A DNA stretch of 64,000 bases from a virus (taxonomy: Duplodnaviria; Heunggongvirae; Uroviricota; Caudoviricetes), in IMG/VR virus record IMGVR_UViG_3300032322_001781. One strand, given 5' to 3'. Of this stretch, positions 2,452 to 64,000 are shown in pieces. Under the pieces are notes generated by a model. It worked only from the letters and a program-made list of their open reading frames with translations. It ran no database searches and had not been told where the DNA came from. Numbering within the stretch: position 1 is the stretch's first letter; each line of letters opens with the position of its first letter. Made by a program: the position numbers and the translations under genes.

Positions 2452-2563
2452 GCTGTTATAGTTTAATTGGCTAGAACACCGCAAATCCCAGCGGAAAGAG
2501 AACCAAGTCACTTCTAGTGTGGCGTTAGGTGAAGTAATTTAGGTTCGAATCCTAATGACAGCT
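2452..2563 (+). ncRNA. tRNA-like element of atypical length (~112 nt) with canonical T-arm
   Basis: T-arm ttagg-ttcgaat-cctaa at 2539-2555 and acceptor pairing gctgtta/tgacagc, but intervening length does not fit a standard cloverleaf (possible insertion or other small RNA). Confidence 0.35.
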
Positions 2564-2579
2564 CAAAATTAATTACAAA

Positions 2580-3704
2580 ATGGAAACGAGTAATAATTTA
2601 AATATAGATAAGAAGATATTGGTAGCTCTTAGTGGTGGTATCGATTCAACCGTATCAGCCATACTTCTTAAAGAACAAGGTTTTGATGTAATTGGAGTCA
2701 CAATGAAGACTTGGGATTATACTAGTTCTGGTGTCGTTGAGTCTTCAAAGAAAACAACTGGTTGTTGCTCTTTAGATGATATAAATGATGCTAGACAAGT
2801 TTGTGTAGATTATGATATACCTCATTATATTCATGATATAAGAAATGATTTTAACGATTCAGTTGTAAATAACTTTATTGATGAATACATGGAAGGTCGA
2901 ACTCCAAACCCTTGTATTATTTGTAATACACATATTAAATGGGGTGCTTTATTACGTATTGCTGATAAATTAGATTGTAAATATATTGCAACTGGTCACT
3001 ATGCTAATATTCGTAAAGAAGATGACCGTTATATTCTATCGAGTGGTGTAGATGTAACCAAGGACCAATCTTATGTATTATGGGGTTTAACTCAAGAAGT
3101 ATTAGCTCGTACTATATTTCCAGTGGGTGGTTATGAAAAGACGCAAATAAGACAAATGGCTTTAGATAGAGGTTATGCTGATATAGCAAAGAAGAGCGAA
3201 AGTTATGAAATTTGTTTTATTCCAGATAACAATTACCGAGCTTTTTTATCAAGAAAGCGTGACATAACCAAGGGTAACTTTTTGGATACTGCTGGAAACG
3301 TTATTGGCACACATGATGGGTTTCCATTCTTTACTATAGGTCAAAGAAGAGGTCTTGGTATAACAAATTCCGAACCTTATTATGTAACAGACATCAACCC
3401 AATCACCAATGAAGTAACGTTGGGTTGTGAAGTTGACCTTATGAGACAATCAATGATTGTTTCAAATGTTAATATCATAAAGTATTCGTATGCTTTGTTG
3501 AATGGAATGGATGTTCTTGCTAATGTAAGATATCGTGGTAAGACAGTACTAGGTAATGTGACATGTTTGGGTGATAGAATGATTAGAATTGATTTTAATC
3601 ACCAAATTAGAGCAATAACTGCTGGTCAATCCAGTGTGTTTTATGACCCATCAAATCCATCCGATGTTATTGGTGGTGGGCATATTCACCAAGTAATATT
3701 ATAA
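2580..3704 (+). CDS. mnmA: tRNA-specific 2-thiouridylase MnmA
   Basis: PP-loop SGGIDSTV near N-terminus, conserved catalytic Cys region (CCS, CNT..KWG), full-length similarity to MnmA/TrmU. Confidence 0.9.
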   Translation: METSNNLNIDKKILVALSGGIDSTVSAILLKEQGFDVIGVTMKTWDYTSSGVVESSKKTTGCCSLDDINDARQVCVDYDIPHYIHDIRNDFNDSVVNNFIDEYMEGRTPNPCIICNTHIKWGALLRIADKLDCKYIATGHYANIRKEDDRYILSSGVDVTKDQSYVLWGLTQEVLARTIFPVGGYEKTQIRQMALDRGYADIAKKSESYEICFIPDNNYRAFLSRKRDITKGNFLDTAGNVIGTHDGFPFFTIGQRRGLGITNSEPYYVTDINPITNEVTLGCEVDLMRQSMIVSNVNIIKYSYALLNGMDVLANVRYRGKTVLGNVTCLGDRMIRIDFNHQIRAITAGQSSVFYDPSNPSDVIGGGHIHQVIL

Positions 3705-4364: not shown

Positions 4365-5489
4365 ATGAAACAACTAATTAAAAAAATCTTAAACGAAAAT
4401 CTAAACATAATATATGAAATAGATTTGCAAGGAACGTTTAAAGATGTCTCCTTCAAACAATTGTCTATAGATGAAGCTAGAGAGTATCTAGAAAGAGTAA
4501 TATCTAATTGTGAGAAAAAACCAGCTGAAAGAGAAAAATTAGCAGCAAATAAACCATATATTCACGGAAAAGCTATACCTAAAAGCGAGGGTGGTGAAAT
4601 AGACATGGATGCTTTCATTCAAAAGATAACTTCTATGCCAAATGAAATTTTAAGTATAAATTCAAAAATGGCAAAATCGGCTGATGATAATTCATTTACT
4701 GTTAATATTGGTATACCAGCATTAAGAGGTTTGGTATATGATTTGGATGCTGGGGTTTTTTATATAGTCAATACTTGTCCAGGGGCTGGTGCCTGTGCTT
4801 TATTTTGTTATGCTAGGCAGGGTAGTTATGTTATGTTTCCAAATGTGTTTGTTAATCAAACCAGAATATTAAATTTGCTACTCAATTTCCCAGAAAGATT
4901 TGAAAAATTATTATTTAGGGAATTAGAATCAGTTGCTTTAAAAAATCCAAACATGTCCATAAAAATGAGATGGAACGATGCTGGTGATTTTTTCAGTGAA
5001 GAATATTTCAACATTGCTTTTAGAATTACCAAAAAATTAAAAGCGGATGGTTATAATGTAACATCATATGCTTATAGTAAAATGGCTAATGTTGCTAATT
5101 TAGAAGATGACGATTTCATTGTAAATGTATCTGGAGATATCAACGTTAAACAATCTAAACAGATAAAGGATATTGAAAGCAAAAAAACACAAGTAACGGT
5201 ACCTAAAGATTTGTTTGACGACTTATTATTAAAGGATAAAAGACAATATGCTGTAAATGAAAAGGGTAAAGTCATATTTAAGAATGGTCAAGATGGTATA
5301 GATGCCTTGAAAAAGAGAATATCTTTAAAATATGACGTACCAGTTGAAACATTATTAACTTACGATGAGATGATGAAAACACCAAAAGGTGAGAAAAATC
5401 AATACAATGTAGTTATAATGCCAAGAGGTGATGGTGACATAGCTGCACAAAGAATGGATGTTAAAACTAGTTTTTTATTAATTCACTAA
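4365..5489 (+). CDS. hypothetical protein, Cys-rich motif CPGAGACALFCYA
   Basis: 374-aa ORF, no confident family assignment. Confidence 0.5.
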   Translation: MKQLIKKILNENLNIIYEIDLQGTFKDVSFKQLSIDEAREYLERVISNCEKKPAEREKLAANKPYIHGKAIPKSEGGEIDMDAFIQKITSMPNEILSINSKMAKSADDNSFTVNIGIPALRGLVYDLDAGVFYIVNTCPGAGACALFCYARQGSYVMFPNVFVNQTRILNLLLNFPERFEKLLFRELESVALKNPNMSIKMRWNDAGDFFSEEYFNIAFRITKKLKADGYNVTSYAYSKMANVANLEDDDFIVNVSGDINVKQSKQIKDIESKKTQVTVPKDLFDDLLLKDKRQYAVNEKGKVIFKNGQDGIDALKKRISLKYDVPVETLLTYDEMMKTPKGEKNQYNVVIMPRGDGDIAAQRMDVKTSFLLIH

Positions 5490-10943: not shown

Positions 10944-12566
10944 ATGCAATCCGCAAGTCGTTTTTTAAAAAGAAAGCTAGGTCTTAAATCAGTGATTAAA
11001 GACCGCTTGGCTGAAGCCATCAAGAATCGTGATTGGGCTTCCATCGAAAATTTACAAGACCTTATTGCTAAGGCTTTGGATAAACCGTATAACCTTGTAC
11101 TTATGGGTGATGCTTACAAGTATTCACATCATAAGTTTTATGAGGACAATACTACCAAGGTTTATTCTTACATGGAGTCACGTGGTGGAAAATTCAGTGA
11201 AACCGTAGTTTACGGTATTCAAATGTTCATCAAAGAATTTATCGAAGGTGTTGCAATCACTCAAGAAGAGTTGGATGAAGCATACGAATACTTAGGTACA
11301 AAATTGGGTGTGTTCGGACGTGAAGACGTATTCGACAAATCCAAATTCCAATACATAATTGACGTTCACGGTGGCCGTCTTCCAGTTCTTATCAAAGCTG
11401 TTCCAGAAGGAACCGTTGTTGGTGTAAAGAACGTATTGGTAACTATTGAAAACACCGACCCTAATTGCTACTGGTTGACCAACTTCCTTGAAACTATCAT
11501 GATGCAAGTTTGGTATCCTATTACCGTAGCTACCTTATCTCACGAAGTTAAAAAAATTGTTCGTGAGTACTTCCAAAAAACATCAGACCTTCCAGAAAAT
11601 ATCATGGACACGGTTATTGAGTTCGTATTGAACGACTTTGGTTTCCGTGGTGTGTCTTCCGTACAATCGGCTGGTATCGGTGGCTCTGCTCACCTTGTAA
11701 ACTTCTTGGGTTCTGATACAACTTATGCTTCAAAACGTATCTGTGAATACTACAACTCTGACCGAGTATTTGGTTTGAGCGTACCAGCGACTGAACACTC
11801 TATCATGACAATGAGAGGTGAAGCTGGTGAAGTTGAAATGATGAGACGTACACTTGAAAAATATCCTACTGGTATTGTTGCTTGTGTATCTGACTCTTAC
11901 CACATCCTTCGTGCTTGTTCACAATATTGGGGAACTGAATTGCGTGACCTTATCTTGAGTCGCCCAGCAGAACCAGGTAACCAGTTGGTTATTCGCCCAG
12001 ACTCTGGCCACGTTGTGAATACACTTAAAGCTGTATTTGAAATCTTGTTTGACAAGTTTGGTTACACAACCAACTCAAAAGGATTCAAAGTATTACCTCC
12101 ACAAGTCCGTGTTATCCAAGGTGATGGTGTAAACATCGGTTCTATTGGTGAAATCTATGAAGAACTTTACAAGCTAGGTATTTCTGCTGAGAACATCGTG
12201 TTTGGTATGGGTGGAAAGTTGTTACAAGCTGACATCAACCGTGACACACAAAACTTCGCAACCAAAGCGTGTTTTGCAGTTGTTGATGGTGTTGAGCGTG
12301 ACCTTGTAAAATCACCAACAGAAGTTGATGAAAATGGTGACTTGAAACCTTCATTCAAGAAATCAAAACAAGGTCGTTTGAAACTTGTTAAGAATGAAGA
12401 TGGAACTTACCGCACTGTAACATCACGTGATGCTGACTTTGATAGCGTTAATGATGAATTGGTTCCAATATTCCAAGATGGTGAAATACTTGTAGAATAC
12501 ACATTCGAAGAAATCAGAGAAAGAGTTCAAGCTACTTTCAAAAAACAAGAATTGGAGGTTGCGTAA
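10944..12566 (+). CDS. nadV: nicotinamide phosphoribosyltransferase (NAMPT/NadV)
   Basis: Strong NAMPT-family similarity (DAYKYSHHKFY.., VVYGIQMFIKEF, GSDTTY motifs); about 48-aa N-terminal extension relative to canonical NAMPT. Confidence 0.85.
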   Translation: MQSASRFLKRKLGLKSVIKDRLAEAIKNRDWASIENLQDLIAKALDKPYNLVLMGDAYKYSHHKFYEDNTTKVYSYMESRGGKFSETVVYGIQMFIKEFIEGVAITQEELDEAYEYLGTKLGVFGREDVFDKSKFQYIIDVHGGRLPVLIKAVPEGTVVGVKNVLVTIENTDPNCYWLTNFLETIMMQVWYPITVATLSHEVKKIVREYFQKTSDLPENIMDTVIEFVLNDFGFRGVSSVQSAGIGGSAHLVNFLGSDTTYASKRICEYYNSDRVFGLSVPATEHSIMTMRGEAGEVEMMRRTLEKYPTGIVACVSDSYHILRACSQYWGTELRDLILSRPAEPGNQLVIRPDSGHVVNTLKAVFEILFDKFGYTTNSKGFKVLPPQVRVIQGDGVNIGSIGEIYEELYKLGISAENIVFGMGGKLLQADINRDTQNFATKACFAVVDGVERDLVKSPTEVDENGDLKPSFKKSKQGRLKLVKNEDGTYRTVTSRDADFDSVNDELVPIFQDGEILVEYTFEEIRERVQATFKKQELEVA

Positions 12567-15699: not shown

Positions 15700-16656
15700 A
15701 TGGAATCTATAATTTTTTCATTAGATGGTAGAGTAGATTTGATGAACTCTATTTTAGAACATTATAATAAAATTTCAGAAAACAAAAACACTATTATAGG
15801 TGAATTCAACCATCAAAAATTTTCAGATGGTGAATTATGTGGTGATTATAGCGTATCTGTAAGAGGTAAAAGAGTTTATCTTTTATCAAGTGCTAATGAT
15901 AGTGACAAAATTATTAGTCTAATTTTAGCAATTGATGCTGCAAAAAGGGCTGCTGCGTCCGAAATCATTCCAATACTCCCATATTTTCCTTATGCTAGAC
16001 AGGATAAAAAGGACCAAGTTAGAGGCCCTATTGGAGCTAAAGTTATTGCAAGTATGTTAGAAAATGCTGGTGCAACATCCATAATCACATTTGACTTACA
16101 CGCAGACCAAATTCAAGGTTTTTTTGATATTCCTCTTACGCACATAGAAGGTAAAAACGTTTTCGATGATTACATATATTCAATTTCTAACGAAAATACT
16201 GTTTTGTGTGGACCAGACGCTGGCTCTGGCAAGAGAGTTAAAAGAATGAAAGACCAATTATTAAATCATTATGGTTTAGATTTAAATTATGTTATGATGG
16301 ATAAAACCAGAAAAGTTGCTAATGAGGTTGATAAAATGGTTATAATTGGAGATGTTCAAGATAAAGATGTGATAATTTTGGATGATATGGTTGACACAGC
16401 TGGGACTTTATGTAAAGCTGCTAGTGTGATTATAGAAAACGGGGCTAAAAGTGTTATGGCTATAATTAGTCATGGTGTTTTATCTGGGAATGCTTATAAA
16501 AATATTAATTCTTCAGTTTTAAAAGAATTGGTAATAAGTGATTCACTACTTAAAAAAGATTTACCTAATAATATTATAACAATAAGTATTGATTTTCAAA
16601 TAGCGAAAACTATCGCTTCAATAAACAATAATTTAAGTTATGAATTAATAAAATGA
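15700..16656 (+). CDS. prs: ribose-phosphate pyrophosphokinase (PRPP synthetase) family protein
   Basis: Prs architecture: DGE..G.....VRGK.VYLL.S N-domain and PRTase-type C-domain (VIILDDMVDTAGTL). Confidence 0.8.
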   Translation: MESIIFSLDGRVDLMNSILEHYNKISENKNTIIGEFNHQKFSDGELCGDYSVSVRGKRVYLLSSANDSDKIISLILAIDAAKRAAASEIIPILPYFPYARQDKKDQVRGPIGAKVIASMLENAGATSIITFDLHADQIQGFFDIPLTHIEGKNVFDDYIYSISNENTVLCGPDAGSGKRVKRMKDQLLNHYGLDLNYVMMDKTRKVANEVDKMVIIGDVQDKDVIILDDMVDTAGTLCKAASVIIENGAKSVMAIISHGVLSGNAYKNINSSVLKELVISDSLLKKDLPNNIITISIDFQIAKTIASINNNLSYELIK

Positions 16657-48895: not shown

Positions 48896-48964
48896 AGTAG
48901 AATCGTCTAATTGGTAGGGCGCATCAGGAAAGGTGAAATTTAGGTTCGACTCCTAGTTCTACTA
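48896..48964 (+). tRNA. tRNA-like element (short, ~69 nt) with T-arm ttagg-ttcgact-cctag and D-loop-like aattggtag
   Basis: Perfect 7-bp acceptor agtagaa/ttctact, D-stem gtct/gggc, but no canonical anticodon arm (loop ggaaagg lacks U33). Confidence 0.35.
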
Positions 48965-52317: not shown

Positions 52318-52579
52318 AGAAGGTAAAAAAGAAATTGAAAATAAGATAGCTGATTATGAAAGAAGTGAAGCTTATGATGATGAATATTATGAAAGGGAAC
52401 TTCAAGGAAAATATAAAATTCATAAAGAAATCCTAGCATCAGCAATAATACTACCTGTTGAGGAAAGTTGGGAAAAATTAGAAGAGAATCTTTTAGAAGG
52501 ATTACATGAACATACAAGATTAGAACATGTAATTTCTATTGATTATCCAAATGGAGTTATAATACAACCTAAACAATAA
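52295..52579 (+). CDS. hypothetical protein
   Basis: ORF. Confidence 0.4.
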   Translation: MKGIYLTEEGKKEIENKIADYERSEAYDDEYYERELQGKYKIHKEILASAIILPVEESWEKLEENLLEGLHEHTRLEHVISIDYPNGVIIQPKQ

Positions 52580-52582
52580 AAC

Positions 52583-52762
52583 ATGGCACAAACTAAAAAA
52601 CAACAAGAAGAAGTTAAACAAGCCATGCAACAATCTCCACCAAAAGATGAAAGAAGTTATCTTTTTGATATTACTGGTTGTCCTAGATATGAAGGTTATA
52701 TACCTAAATCATTAGGACATGAAGTATGTAAATATTGTGGAAGACATAGTTATTATCATTAA
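52583..52762 (+). CDS. hypothetical 59-aa Zn-ribbon-like protein (not in ORF track)
   Basis: MAQTKKQQEE...GCPRYEG...CKYCGRH; below 60-aa track cutoff. Confidence 0.35.
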   Translation: MAQTKKQQEEVKQAMQQSPPKDERSYLFDITGCPRYEGYIPKSLGHEVCKYCGRHSYYH

Positions 52763-52843
52763 AATTTATTAAAATGCTAGACTTAAATAAATTGGAATAA
52801 AGAATAAGCGTCTTATAAAATGAAATAATTTTTTCAAAATAAA

Positions 52844-52875
52844 TTTGGTTATGTCAAAATTATTTCATACCTTTG
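52844..52875 (+). promoter_or_regulatory. Bacteroidetes-type promoter driving 900-nt ORF-free region
   Basis: TTTGG-N20-TACCTTTG followed by TCACGTTCATTGA (same +1 box as 39817). Confidence 0.6.
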
Positions 52876-52881
52876 TCTCAC

Positions 52882-53786
52882 GTTCATTGAAATACTAAAA
52901 AAAATTAGGCTTGATATTTGCCTTTGTGAATGAATTAGTCAGAGCCAGTAATGGACAAGAGCTTGAGAACTCTTATAATTCACATAAAAAGTTGTAGTAA
53001 TAAAAAGGTTGGTGGTTAGACTTTGATAGGTTGCCGAAGTCCTTAGAGATGAGTAGGAAGTTCTTAGTCGTTAAAGAAGAACACCAGTTATTACTACAAA
53101 TTGTGTTGTTTCTCTGATTTGAGATAAGAGAAATGCTAATAGATTCACATAAATAAACTGATAATAGTGAAAAGCTGAGTTATCGCAACACAAATATCAA
53201 TCTCAATCTAATTGTTTTGTAATAGTCTTGAAATATAGGGTAACTACTTATAATAAAAATAGCGATTTGAGAGTGCCGTAAGGTAACAGATTATGAGAGC
53301 TATTACAAAACATTAGAATATTCTATACCAATAAACTTGTTGTTAGTCAACATATAATAGTCAGAAAATATTGGTAGAAGATATAAATCACTATTGAAAA
53401 TAGTATGAATGTAGCTGCTCACGGCTACAAAGCTGGTAAAAACTTTGTAAAAAATGTGAGACTCCAAGCAAGAAATTGTGATGGTACAAAGAATTCAGGT
53501 GAATACTATATAACCTAAGTAAATAGTGACACATAATGGTGGCTGTAGTAATACAGTAGTGGCAGCATATTGTATAAGAAGGCATTAGTTTAACTCTTTA
53601 TTGTCAGAACATCTTATAGTATGCCTTAAACATAGTAATATGTTTATAGTAGTTTCTAATACGACATACATAGAAATATGTGTTTGCAAAATGAAACATT
53701 GTGCGAGCCTACTGTGGTGGTAGGAAAATATTAACAATTAAAACTTAACATGATGAATATGTTAGCAAAATTGCTTACTTTTACGT
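52882..53786 (+). ncRNA. candidate large structured ncRNA (~900 nt), unknown family
   Basis: No ORF >60 aa on + strand across ~900 nt in an otherwise gene-dense genome; numerous local and long-range complementary segments (tgtgaat/attcaca, attgtgttg/caacacaat, gtaatagtc/gctattac). Confidence 0.5.
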
Positions 53787-54533
53787 ATGAAAAAATTAAA
53801 CCACTTACAATTTTTAGAAAAATTAGAATTAAAAAATACCTATTACGCTAAAAAAGAATTTGTTGTAAGTGGTTTTTATGTTGATAGTAGAACAAAAATA
53901 GAAGTAGAAACACTATTTGGTAAATGTTTAATATTACCAACAAGTTTACTAAAAGGTTTTAATCCTACTATAGAAACAGCGATTGATAAAAATAATTATA
54001 TTATAGCACAATTTAAAAATGTTCATGGTGATAAATATAATTATGATTATGTGCATTATAAAAATATGAGAAATAAAGTCATTATTTTCTGTGAAAAACA
54101 TAACATGAAATTTTCTCAACTTCCTTCATGTCATTTATCTGGAAGAGGGTGTCCTTGTTGCGGAAAAAATATGATTAGTTTAAATAATCAAAAAAATTGT
54201 ACAACATGGAGTTATTCTGATTGGGAATCTATTGGAAATATATCTTTATATTTTGATTGTTTTAAAGTTTATATAGTAAAATGTTGGGATGAAAATGAGG
54301 AATTTTATAAAATTGGTAAAACTTTTACAAATATAAATAAAAGATTATCTAAAAATAATTTACCTTACAAATATGAAGTATTAAAAATATTTACAGGTAC
54401 AGCTTTAGAAATATCTAAATTAGAGAAAAAATTAATTGATATAAATAAAGAATATAAATATATACCTAAACAAAAATTCAAAGGTATGTATGAATGTTTT
54501 AACAATATAAATAATATAATATGGGAAATTTAG
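53787..54533 (+). CDS. hypothetical protein with Zn-ribbon (C..H...C.CCG); weak GIY-YIG-like stretch
   Basis: CHLSGRGCPCCG; VYIVKCWDENEEFYKIGKT loosely resembles GIY-(10)-YIG. Confidence 0.4.
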   Translation: MKKLNHLQFLEKLELKNTYYAKKEFVVSGFYVDSRTKIEVETLFGKCLILPTSLLKGFNPTIETAIDKNNYIIAQFKNVHGDKYNYDYVHYKNMRNKVIIFCEKHNMKFSQLPSCHLSGRGCPCCGKNMISLNNQKNCTTWSYSDWESIGNISLYFDCFKVYIVKCWDENEEFYKIGKTFTNINKRLSKNNLPYKYEVLKIFTGTALEISKLEKKLIDINKEYKYIPKQKFKGMYECFNNINNIIWEI

Positions 54534-61857: not shown

Positions 61858-63015
61858 ATGAAAGAAAAACTAGAACAACATGAAATCGACTTAATGTCAG
61901 TTGTTAGTAATAAATGGATAAAATTAGCATTCGACAAATGCTCGGATGGTATTAATAAACCAGCCTTCGAAGAAGGTATTGCTTGGCTGTATAAAAGATT
62001 CCTAGACTTGGGCGCACCCCAAGTAGTTTATTGCGAGTCAATGCTGGATGCTGTAATTAAAATCACTCTTGTAAAAGATTATGGTAAAGAATTGTCAGAT
62101 TTCTCACCAAAAATCATGGATGACTTTCACAATGGTGAATTAGATGCTGATTTTGTCGCTAAAATAAAAGAAAACTATTCCCTAAAATCAACTTATATCG
62201 GTTGGTCTAACTATGGTTGGGTTAGTTTCTACGATTTCTTCACTCAAATTAACGTTCTCAATCACGAAGACTTCAACAACTATCAAAAGCTGATTGAATC
62301 AAATGTATTTGAATGTTTTGAATTTGAAAATGTGGTTTTCGCTGTTCAACCACCAAGCAAAGTCATTTACAATGAAGCATTGCTTCCACATAACCTAGAA
62401 GGCCCTTCTATCATCTTCAACGATGGTTCAGATTTCTACCATGTTAATGGGTTTTCAATATCTCATGAATTATTTGAAAAATTGAAAACCAATACCTACA
62501 CATTTCAAGACTTCATTAGTGAAGAAAATGAAGAAATAAAATCAGCCATTATTTCGTATTTGGAACTTAAAAACGGTCCAATCGGTGTATATGATTTTAT
62601 CAAAGATAATCTTAAAGAAGTGGATTCTTTCGTAGATAAAAAAGAAGACCGTTTTATGGAAGGTACTACCAAAAGCATGAATATAGGTGTGTATACCCTA
62701 TTCAAAGGGAATATCAATAACATTGATATAGCTTATGTTAGATGCTACTGCCCATCCACTGATAGAATGTTCTTCTTAGGCGTGGACCCAGAAAACACCA
62801 ACGCTAAAGATGCTATCGCCTCTCTATTTAGAGTACCAACTGTTTTGAAAAACAAAATCAAAACCATCTCAAGACAAGGTGAAAAATTTTCGATAGAATT
62901 TGATGAGGAAACTATCGCAAAATTACAAAACAATCAATTTTCACAAGAAGAATTAAATACTTATACAACAGTATCAGGTGATGAATACTTCTCCCTTATG
63001 AAATATGAATTTTAA
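61858..63015 (+). CDS. hypothetical protein (first ATG after promoter)
   Basis: Track start 61831 has no ATG and lies in promoter. Confidence 0.5.
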   Translation: MKEKLEQHEIDLMSVVSNKWIKLAFDKCSDGINKPAFEEGIAWLYKRFLDLGAPQVVYCESMLDAVIKITLVKDYGKELSDFSPKIMDDFHNGELDADFVAKIKENYSLKSTYIGWSNYGWVSFYDFFTQINVLNHEDFNNYQKLIESNVFECFEFENVVFAVQPPSKVIYNEALLPHNLEGPSIIFNDGSDFYHVNGFSISHELFEKLKTNTYTFQDFISEENEEIKSAIISYLELKNGPIGVYDFIKDNLKEVDSFVDKKEDRFMEGTTKSMNIGVYTLFKGNINNIDIAYVRCYCPSTDRMFFLGVDPENTNAKDAIASLFRVPTVLKNKIKTISRQGEKFSIEFDEETIAKLQNNQFSQEELNTYTTVSGDEYFSLMKYEF

Positions 63016-63316: not shown

Positions 63317-63352
63317 AAAAAGAGCATATTTTATACATATGCTCTTTTTTAT
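63317..63352 (+). terminator. rho-independent terminator
   Basis: agagcatat-tttatac-atatgctct + T6. Confidence 0.75.
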
Positions 63353-63362
63353 TTTAATCTAT

Positions 63363-63578
63363 ATGGAACTAGGTAATTCAGTATATAATTCAGTATGGAA
63401 TTCAGTAAGTGTTTCAGTATATAATTCAGTATGGAATTCAGTATATGATTCAGTAGAGAATTCAGTACGGAGTTCAGTATTGAATTCAGTAAGTGATTCA
63501 GTAAGTAATTCAGTATGGCTTTCAGTAAGGGATTCAGTAACCAGACAAATTCAAAATATAAAACATGAAACTAGGTAA
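63363..63578 (+). CDS. small ORF 1 of tandem array: (N/D)SVx tetrapeptide-repeat protein
   Basis: MELGNSVYNSVWNSV...; stop overlaps next ATG. Confidence 0.4.
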   Translation: MELGNSVYNSVWNSVSVSVYNSVWNSVYDSVENSVRSSVLNSVSDSVSNSVWLSVRDSVTRQIQNIKHETR

Positions 63579-63744
63579 ATCAATAAGTAATTCAGTAAGG
63601 AATTCAGTAAGGATTCCAGTAAATGATTCAGTAACTAATTCAGTATGGGGTTCAGTAAGGGATTCAGTATGGGATTCAGTAAGGGATTCAGTATGGAATT
63701 CTGTCATTCGACCAACTAGAAATATAAAAAATGAATATAGGTAA
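63565..63744 (+). CDS. small ORF 2 of tandem array (59 aa, not in track)
   Basis: MKLGKSISNSVRNSV...TRNIKNEYR*; overlaps ORF1 end and ORF3 start. Confidence 0.4.
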   Translation: MKLGKSISNSVRNSVRIPVNDSVTNSVWGSVRDSVWDSVRDSVWNSVIRPTRNIKNEYR

Positions 63745-63901
63745 TTCAGTTAAAAGCAAAGTAACTAATTCAGTATTGAATTCAGTAAATGATTCAGTAA
63801 GTAATTCAGTATGGAATTCAGTAAGTAATTCAGTATATTATTCAGTAAATGATTCAGTAACTAATTCAATAACCAGACCAACCAGAAATATAATAAAATG
63901 A
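63731..63901 (+). CDS. small ORF 3 of tandem array (56 aa)
   Basis: MNIGNSVKSKVTNSVLNSV...; stop TGA overlaps next start in ATGA. Confidence 0.4.
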   Translation: MNIGNSVKSKVTNSVLNSVNDSVSNSVWNSVSNSVYYSVNDSVTNSITRPTRNIIK

Positions 63902-64000
63902 ATATAGGTAAACCAATATGTAATTCAGTAAGGAATTCAGTAAGTAATTCAGTATATGATTCAGTAAGGGATTCAGTATTGGATTCAGTATGGGATTCAG
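63898..64000 (+). CDS. small ORF 4 of tandem array (partial, runs off window)
   Basis: MNIGKPICNSVRNSVSNSV... Confidence 0.35.
   Translation, partial: MNIGKPICNSVRNSVSNSVYDSVRDSVLDSVWDS

Follow-up and report, generated by a model that had tools for sequence, protein, structure and literature searches.

The stretch of viral DNA considered here, referred to as the window, comprises 64,000 nucleotides (nt) (IMG/VR record IMGVR_UViG_3300032322_001781, Caudoviricetes). It is phage DNA in which essentially every open reading frame (ORF) of more than 100 amino acids (aa) lies on the + strand, with PHROG matches to a nuclease, a DNA-transfer protein, a nicotinamide phosphoribosyltransferase, a ribose-phosphate pyrophosphokinase and a QueC-like protein, and with 5-8 tRNA genes at its start. 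Its largest + strand ORF-free gap, at 52763-53786, measures 1024 nt compared with a median gap of 51 nt, and contains only ORFs of up to 40 aa on the + strand and up to 64 aa on the - strand, bearing out the initial annotation, which had singled out a gene-free stretch of about 900 nt at this position as a candidate large non-coding RNA (ncRNA). Positions ~52882-53731 (+ strand) of this gap probably constitute the gene for a ~850-nt structured ncRNA belonging to a previously uncatalogued phage RNA family; that the element is a conserved structured RNA gene is very likely.

Bacteroidota promoters carry TTTG at -33 and TAnnTTTG at -7, and differ from sigma-70 promoters (TTGACA/TATAAT). The consensus promoter that had been proposed upstream of the gap is present, but is of this Bacteroidota type and departs from the sigma-70 consensus. 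The window holds 21 copies of the pattern TTTG-N17-21-TAnnTTTG where 5.6 would be expected; none of 100 shuffles attains 21, and 20 of the 21 copies are on the + strand, mostly directly upstream of ORF starts; a simple sigma-70 scan of the window showed no enrichment. From general knowledge of such promoters, transcription of the element would be predicted to start at ~52881-52883. The same promoter type is found 60-70 nt upstream of conserved block A in the window lineage and in L068 and L082 (L numbers designate the related contigs and loci compared here). The promoter box at 52820-52868 and 20 other sites share a long common sequence (TTTGGTAAnnTCAAAnTTATTTnnTACCTTTG), and at 52820-52868 the box is embedded within a 20-nt inverted repeat, recalling the promoter stem-loops at the borders of mosaic segments in T4-type phages. 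Contig L007 has the 59-aa gene found upstream of the element, and the promoter box, joined straight to the gene at window 61858-63012 (99.5% identical), with ~9 kb, including the RNA, missing between two promoter-box copies, reflecting either recombination between promoter repeats or an assembly chimera.

Approximately 25 distinct homologues, 650-1000 nt in length, remained after removal of duplicates, in phage and metagenome contigs of up to 310 kb; L060, at ~690 nt, is a short member. An exact look-up with the upstream 59-aa protein gave near-identical metagenome contigs, including L004 and L005, while a homologue (P0007, 86% identical) of the HD protein encoded downstream led to L058, a 120-kb contig with a colinear copy, the first diverged one, and this comparison showed which blocks are conserved. 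Exact scans with three conserved blocks yielded six, five and three IMG/VR contigs, plus ten metagenome contigs, and an nhmmer profile built from the first alignment matched nearly all members colinearly with the window RNA (E 1e-159 to 1e-35). One representative lies in the cultured Leptolyngbya phage Lbo-JY46 (PP438436.1), which carries the 3' domain only (P6-P11), at about 8.44-8.94 kb, in an unannotated 590-nt gap; this copy came to light when the L062 element was compared with GenBank phages by BLAST at E ≤ 1, and has an nhmmer E-value of 9e-23. With the window region as query, BLAST matched no GenBank phage at E ≤ 1e-5, a threshold that blocks of 20-40 nt cannot reach. Two exact-block scans of one genome each from 185,579 prokaryotic species gave only a 24-nt block on a 2.7-kb contig of a metagenome-assembled genome. 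Among exact scans with cassette sequence, a 16-mer from a variable cassette gave 15 matches, all by chance and inside coding sequence, and a 21-mer and a 20-mer from cassette 0 gave none.

The members have in common ~14 near-invariant blocks in fixed order, which are the bases of 13 helices, including a pseudoknot (Table 1). Helix coordinates and complementarity were verified directly on the window sequence. The joiners between helices are among the best-conserved parts (UAAAAAG, UCUAAU, UUAGAUAAU, GAAAAUAC, UAUAACCUAAGUA, GGUGGCA, UAGUAG and AUUGUGCGAG), and the long helices enclose cassettes of 19-150 nt whose lengths and sequences are unrelated between members. Judging from the sequence comparison, the element consists of two separable domains, a 5' domain (P1-P5) and a 3' domain (P6-P11). 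These also occur apart in nature: L064 contains P1-P6 followed by an ORF, Lbo-JY46 contains P6-P11, and L081 lacks the P1-P4 part. A ~3.8-kb non-coding stretch in L074 (1152-4972, - strand) holds several tandem partial or complete copies of the element, with three 5' domains, two or three 3' parts, and a tRNA-Met gene in between.

Table 1. Features of the element and its immediate surroundings in window coordinates
Feature	Position	Strand	Description
Bacteroidota-type promoter	52844..52875	+	-33 TTTG, 20-nt spacer, -7 TACCTTTG; reads TTTGGTTATGTCAAAATTATTTCATACCTTTG
5' leader with motif GTTCATTGAAAT	52882..52905	+	GTTCWTTGARAT recurs 15-25 nt upstream of block A in L059/L067, L062, L068, L082
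P1 hairpin	52907-52910 / 52920-52923	+	AGGC-UUGAUAUUU-GCCU; 9-nt loop 52911-52919 is the pseudoknot 5' strand
Pseudoknot	52911-52919 / 53192-53200	+	P1 loop pairs with strand after P4 (AAAUAUCAA); nine complementary bases
P2	52925-52931 / 52978-52984	+	Encloses variable cassette 0 with CCA-GUAA-UGG hairpin
P3	52992-53003 / 53088-53099	+	Encloses variable cassette 1 (53004-53087)
P4	53103-53108 / 53186-53191	+	Encloses hairpin P4a and variable cassette 2; 98% of cells paired
P4a	53109-53115 / 53127-53133	+	Loop contains UUGAG
P5	53213-53225 / 53300-53312	+	Encloses variable cassette 3 with GCC-GUAA-GGU hairpin; 13 perfect pairs in window
P6	53318-53332 / 53370-53384	+	Encloses cassette 4; conserved non-canonical C·A and A·G positions
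P7, long-range	53388-53395 / 53522-53529	+	Encloses conserved strands GAAAAUA, UAUAACCUAAGUA and cassette 5
P8	53565-53572 / 53617-53624	+	Encloses cassette 6; conserved strand GGUGGCA precedes
P9, 8-bp hairpin	53627-53634 / 53639-53646	+	GUAA tetraloop cap
P10	53652-53656 / 53693-53697	+	Encloses cassette 7; window GUUUC/GAAAC
Conserved strand AUUGUGCGAG, terminal hairpin P11, tail AAAAUAU	53698..53731	+	P11 53708-53712 / 53720-53724, loop UGUGGUG
Conserved leader of HD (ppGpp-hydrolase-like) gene, AAAACTTAACATGATGAATATGTTAGCAA	53738..53768	+	~30 nt, small hairpin
Homing-endonuclease-like gene, 248 aa	53787..54533	+	Between RNA and HD gene; outside element

Three of these helices had been noticed in the window sequence by the initial annotation and prove to be real and conserved: TGTGAAT/ATTCACA is P2, TTGTGTTG/CAACACAA is P4, and GTAATAG/CTATTAC is part of P5. 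In the 5' domain, the closing pair of P1 is C-G in 3 sequences and U-A in 13, and the 3' strand of the pseudoknot (53192-53200) stacks on P4; compensatory change is seen at a single pseudoknot position, where 15 sequences have A-U and two contigs related to each other, L079 and L076, have G-C, and the two outermost pseudoknot pairs are poorly kept across the family. In P2, 91% of cells (a cell being one pair in one sequence) are paired and one-sided changes yield G·U, with cassette 0 spanning 32-99 nt across members. P3 has 95% of cells paired and an outermost pair that is U-A or C-G. The P4a stem, compared by eye, reads UUUCUC/GAGAAA in most members, UUUAAC/GUUAAA in L062 and L066, and UUUCUA/UAGAAA in L064, and in P5 both sides have changed in 5 of the 14 counted pairs across the family.

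The helices of the 3' domain vary more freely. P6 has 96% of cells paired and three pairs changed on both sides, and P7, which reads UCACUAUU/AAUAGUGA in the window, reads UCAUUGU/ACAAUGA, UUAUUGU/ACAAUAA or CCAUUGU/ACAAUGG in other members. In P8 (95.5% of cells paired), three pairs show 3-4 standard pair types each. P9 is paired in 99% of cells with six of its eight pairs changed on both sides, its loop being GUAA in most members, GUGA in L079 and different in L072 and L082. P10 reads GUUGUU/AACAAC, GUUUUGUU/AACAAAAC or GUUUGUUG/CAACAAAC in other members (4/7 pairs changed on both sides), and P11 takes the forms CCUAC/GUAGG, UCUACU/AGUAGA, CCUGA/UCAGG, AAUCAGG/CCUGAUU and AAUACCU/AGGUAUU (6/7 pairs changed on both sides). 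With the helices imposed on the window RNA, six of seven tetraloops are GNRA, an observation that is supportive only, as the energy model favours such loops.

For quantification, core alignments were built by the authors, with cassette interiors cut out and the conserved segments joined with NNNNNN, and pairs were counted for the named structure in separate alignments for each domain, with shuffles and slid partners as controls; cells count sequences, not evolutionary events, and shuffle counts are not probabilities. In the 5' domain (18 sequences, 55 pairs), 91.5% of cells are paired compared with 33-54% for slid partners, and 10 pairs have changed on both sides, a number reached in none of 500 shuffles, with a covariation score of 0.109 against 0.078 in shuffles. 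For P6 and P7 (11 sequences, 21 pairs), 93.5% of cells are paired compared with 34-60% when slid, and five pairs have changed on both sides (reached in 1 of 500 shuffles). For P8-P11 (14 sequences, 30 pairs), 91.8% of cells are paired compared with 74.2% shuffled and 30-52% slid, 19 of the 30 pairs have changed on both sides (0/500 shuffles), and the covariation score is 0.507 compared with 0.164 shuffled and at most 0.131 slid. RNAalifold, applied to 12 unedited 3'-domain sequences with their cassettes as a check independent of both the named structure and the trimming, predicts P8, P9, P10 and P11 with 19 of 34 pairs compensatory, and adds an invariant GCA/UGC helix closing the junction. The covariation among relatives on which the initial annotation had made its interpretation depend was thus found by pair counts and RNAalifold, with both partners altered in 34 of the 106 named pairs and pairing kept in 91-94% of cells overall. 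Covariation is strong in the 3' domain, and weaker but present in the ultra-conserved 5' domain. The comparative analysis supports the earlier interpretation of the region as a large structured ncRNA, in the form of a conserved structured RNA of the + strand.

The strand assignment also bears on the proposal that the region acts as DNA, as a replication origin, a packaging site or an inverted-repeat recombination hotspot. Folding energies relative to shuffles are as low on one strand as on the other (z = -3.2 on the + strand, -3.5 on the - strand) and do not discriminate between strands, as would be expected of a DNA element, and frequent recombination is evident from cassette replacement (below) and from the L007 deletion. 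However, G·U outnumber A·C combinations within helices by 81 to 19, which fits only a + strand RNA, and both single substitutions in L010 convert Watson-Crick pairs to G·U if the + strand is the RNA, and would give C·A if it were the opposite one. On these grounds the RNA is assigned to the + strand, co-oriented with the genes. The GNRA loops are moreover maintained (GUAA to GUGA), the window has neither iterons nor a skew inflection, and the element has a promoter upstream and is oriented with the tRNA genes. The replication origin that the initial annotation had offered as an alternative is therefore disfavoured, and a DNA-level element of any of these kinds is extremely unlikely.

The cassettes are subject to exchange between genomes. 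In the aligned region, the window differs from L004 and L005 by one substitution and a 1-nt indel, plus the complete replacement of an ~85-nt segment, 53004-53087 (cassette 1), bounded exactly by the two inverted-repeat arms. L010 keeps cassette 1 and has cassettes 2 and 3 replaced (53135-53185 and 53226-53299), each again helix-bounded, and otherwise different members have cassettes in common (L060/L069; L067/L070, with a diverged relative in L075; L061/L064; L064/L072). These swapped and shared cassettes imply frequent cassette-level recombination. Such an arrangement, with stem-enclosed cassettes in a row that are swapped among genomes identical elsewhere, would also suit a precursor of several small RNAs (decoys, guides or tRNA-like molecules), with the cassettes as functional, fast-evolving products and the conserved stems as processing signals. 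The separate occurrence of the domains (5' only in L064, 3' only in Lbo-JY46), the several tandem partial copies in L074 and the co-orientation with tRNAs, which are themselves cut from precursors, agree with this proposal. Conservation is, however, strongest in the joiners and helix bases and not in the cassettes, the signature of a folded core; the pseudoknot and the long-range helix P7 tie distant parts together; and block order is invariant in all full-length members. A small-RNA precursor is accordingly judged unlikely, with a slim chance of being correct.

The element does not correspond to a catalogued family. Rfam 15 cmscan of the window at gathering score gave tRNAs only, and searches of window 52500-54000 and of the L062 element at E ≤ 10, and of six homologue loci at E ≤ 1, gave nothing relevant over the element; there was no match to GOLLD (RF01998), ROOL (RF03087), HEARO/IsrB omega-RNA, OLE, raiA, RNase P, tmRNA or group I/II introns. 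The sole tmRNA match (20 bits, L062 7425-7512) falls outside the element. The initial annotation had suggested a GOLLD or ROOL member or a new class, and had named GOLLD, ROOL, HEARO and intron models for comparison; in the absence of a match to any of these, membership is not supported, while the new-class branch holds. The block sequences were not found in the published literature searched. ROOL is ~580 nt long; the element here is longer (650-1000 nt) and lacks an Rfam match. Compared with GOLLD, to whose Rfam model it likewise has no match, the element has invariant cores in both domains with variability confined to helix interiors, its two domains occur apart in some phages, and, GOLLD being known from prophages, it is without a copy in the genomes of 185,579 prokaryotic species by exact-block scans.

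Both families are nevertheless the closest analogues. GOLLD and ROOL are phage RNAs located near tRNA islands, which have variable or disordered regions and fold without protein into nanocages (PMC12286853). Like the element here, GOLLD is a large (>800 nt) ornate phage or prophage RNA, often near tRNA genes, with conserved and variable regions and no protein partner, and ROOL is a large phage or prophage RNA near tRNA islands with pseudoknots (multiple in ROOL) and no known protein partner; ROOL forms an RNA-only cage (PMC12286853). The common size range, phage location, tRNA-island setting and mixture of variable and conserved parts might also be expected of a highly divergent GOLLD or ROOL member beyond the reach of the Rfam models (PMC12286853). 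Against this, the 1.1-1.5 kb searches at E ≤ 10 with the laxest filters gave no match, nor did those of six homologue loci at E ≤ 1, and the GOLLD 3' region is described as universally conserved, so that a true member should score (PMC12286853). Divergent membership is therefore considered highly unlikely.

A different comparison is provided by the ncRNA arrays of UG27 reverse transcriptases (RTs) from Bacteroidota phages, in which a ~150-nt hairpin unit, conserved in structure but diverse in sequence, is repeated beside the RT and two accessory genes (sORF and bORF), with motifs AUCN7UANAG and UUYA (bioRxiv 10.64898/2026.09.22.753630). The element resembles these arrays in its conserved secondary structure, highly diverse hairpin interiors, and gain and loss of units, and differs in that its helices are non-repetitive, each being individually conserved across genomes. 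An RT template of this kind, or of the retron msr/msd kind, in which variable hairpin interiors are copied into complementary DNA, would thus account for conserved stems with diverse interiors. However, neither a Pfam search of 10 neighbouring proteins nor a PHROG search of the 10 largest proteins in the window revealed an RT, and no RT-like protein recurs near the element across 19 loci. The AUCNNNNNNNUANAG motif is likewise absent from 52876-53760 (the window as a whole has 9 copies, compared with 9.3 expected), and the helices, each with its own conserved sequence, are not repeats of one unit. An array of the UG27 type, for which an adjacent RT, this motif and a repeated unit were sought, was rejected, and an RT template in general has a very small probability.

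The near-tRNA setting anticipated for a phage-borne RNA of this kind is found both in the window, with its tRNA genes, and among the relatives, where at least five lineages (L059, L067, L081, L074 and L058) have tRNA genes directly adjoining the element and oriented as it is. The place of the promoter is taken in L059 and L067 by a tRNA-Ile gene whose end lies a few bases upstream of the element. tRNA genes follow within a few tens of bases downstream in L059 (tRNA-Met, then tRNA-Leu), L081 (tRNA-Arg) and L074 (tRNA-Met), and the downstream tRNA gene of L058 is interrupted by ~140 nt. Matches to the tRNA model of 98-122 nt, missed by ARAGORN, are frequent in these phages (window 2452-2563; L058 ~4785-4965; L060 2564-2685 and 3111-3208; L061 7318-7417 and 8321-8434; L062 5278-5395 and 10602-10715; L031 8988-9099 and 9229-9334), and could be tRNA genes with insertions or introns; at window 48896-48964, a tRNA-like match was given by Rfam only.

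No constant protein partner lies beside the element in the 19 loci compared, although a 319-aa protein recurs in six. The HD gene, which is hydrolase-like towards guanosine tetraphosphate (ppGpp), adjoins the element only in the window lineage and L058, and lies 1.2 kb downstream in Lbo-JY46. Its conserved leader is found directly upstream of HD genes in L027, L028, L047 and L055-L058, of which only L058 has the element, and this leader probably lies outside the RNA proper. The HD gene is 75-82% identical at the DNA level in these same contigs, with flanks that are otherwise unrelated, so that gene and leader together look like a mobile unit. Most neighbours of the HD gene in related phages are tRNA arrays, and one HD homologue alone (P0007) led to a copy of the element.

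The 248-aa gene between the RNA and the HD gene matches PHROG endonuclease families (4.5e-21), with a DUF723 annotation and a weak Pfam MUG113 match, and is carried by the window, L003 and L006. L004 and L005, which are otherwise 94.5% identical in the RNA region, do not have it; as these contigs have the same non-coding region without the gene, the gene is an optional homing-endonuclease-like insertion. It looks to be free-standing, inserted just upstream of the HD gene start. A group I intron with its homing endonuclease was rejected as an identity for the region, since the element is not flanked by the two parts of a gene and some relatives do without the endonuclease-like gene.

These neighbours allow two further proposals to be weighed. 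The element could be a giant 5' untranslated region that controls the downstream endonuclease-like and HD phosphohydrolase genes in cis, as the next gene follows without an intervening terminator, and the window lineage, L058 and Lbo-JY46 all have the HD gene downstream. In most lineages, however, the downstream neighbour varies (tRNAs, unrelated ORFs or a ~220-aa protein), and in phages without the element the HD gene is still preceded by a short conserved leader of its own, making a cis-acting leader distinctly unlikely. The presence of the HD gene within tRNA arrays in related phages would also be in keeping with a degenerate tRNA array or with coding sequence in decay. The region has no match in ARAGORN or to the Rfam tRNA model, even at E ≤ 10; the genes that take its place beside the upstream gene elsewhere leave no protein remnant in it, excluding their pseudogenes; and the conserved blocks are parted by indels of any length and follow no reading frame, the only called ORF (37 aa) lying in a non-conserved cassette. 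Intact coding sequence and a tRNA array were rejected as candidates on these grounds, and decay is effectively refuted by the covariation results.

If the region is, as favoured here, the gene for a phage structured RNA, its life cycle can be outlined by inference from sequence and by analogy. In the window phage the RNA would be made from its own Bacteroidota-type promoter, and in relatives it would be co-transcribed with tRNAs, with RNase P and RNase Z cuts setting its ends. It would accumulate stably during infection and act in trans. By analogy with GOLLD and ROOL, it may form an RNA-only or RNA-dominated scaffold, possibly a homo-oligomer, in which a compact core and any contacts between subunits would be made by the invariant single-stranded joiners and GNRA loops, with the variable cassettes as expansion segments on the solvent-exposed surface. 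Such a scaffold or oligomer is a tentative suggestion, held at somewhat less than an even chance. The target would likely lie in the tRNA and translation sphere.

T-box and RNase P RNAs bind tRNA 3'-ACCA ends, and the near-invariant GUGGU and GGUGG elements of the RNA are complementary to ACCA. Binding of such ends by the GUGGU of the P11 loop and the GGUGG joiner is only a lead, suggested by this complementarity, and it is weakened by the reading UGGA in L062 and UGAU in Lbo-JY46. In its boldest form, the proposal would be of a third giant phage RNA class, structurally unrelated to GOLLD and ROOL and acting on the host tRNA and translation machinery, whether by self-assembly into an RNA-only particle or by binding tRNA 3' ends, with cassettes diversified under selection, for example for escape from host RNA-targeting defences; this is speculative and rather doubtful.

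Several points count against the favoured reading as a whole. The structure was derived from the same sequences that scored it, and these sequences are related, so that the shuffle controls overstate significance. About half of the 5'-domain pairs never vary, and a slide of three columns also gives 10 both-sided changes; structure in this barely varying domain therefore rests on complementarity more than on covariation. A candidate contact between the P4a loop and CUCAA and the GCA/UGC junction helix are both invariant. Transcription, stability and the 5' and 3' ends are predicted from sequence features, and no intrinsic terminator follows the element in the window, so that the RNA could stay attached to the downstream mRNA. 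The putative scaffold or oligomer mechanism is pure analogy, with no self-complementary conserved loop demonstrated, and the UGG of the P11 loop is not kept in Lbo-JY46 (UGUGAUG; UGAU). Finally, a 2023 catalogue from IMG/VR contains 10,006 unnamed viral candidates, among which the family, or fragments of it, could already be present (PMC10690425).

Ornate large RNAs without protein partners are rare, GOLLD, ROOL and OLE being the classic examples, two of them recently shown to be RNA-only nanocages. A further class in phage tRNA islands, showing no detectable kinship to these at the level of sequence or secondary structure, would suggest that such RNAs evolved more than once in phages. The family would also offer handles beyond those of GOLLD and ROOL, in that its domains occur apart in nature and the swapped helix interiors provide a natural map of dispensable parts. 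With a representative in the cultured pair Lbo-JY46 and Leptolyngbya boryana, deletion and RNA-seq are feasible, and if the reading is true, the 3'-domain copy in this cyanophage would make the biology of the whole RNA group genetically testable. The tRNA cluster of phage T4 also encodes stable RNAs, species 1 and 2 (RNA C and D), which are non-tRNA molecules co-transcribed and processed with tRNAs, of ~120-140 nt and not ornate.

Some further observations concern other genes of these phages. A ~220-aa protein lies beside the RNA in five lineages (L062 5568-6230, L068 457-1122, L072 1433-2089, L078 10605-11207 and L082 8784-9467), with motifs STRELALEWW, EIEEIWRKE and NQKQFKEFNPELFKAYIDKFSDEDK, and is absent from the window; among four members tested, one had a marginal Pfam CPDase match and none a PHROG match. 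The window encodes a nicotinamide adenine dinucleotide salvage pair, nicotinamide phosphoribosyltransferase and ribose-phosphate pyrophosphokinase, together with the QueC-like enzyme of the 7-deazaguanine pathway (10944-12566, 15700-16656 and 2580-3704). At the window end, 63339-64000 contains a run of small ORFs or repeats encoding reiterated 'NSV(R/W/Y)xSV' peptide motifs, and the 111-aa and 59-aa L007 proteins give several overlapping tblastn matches there.

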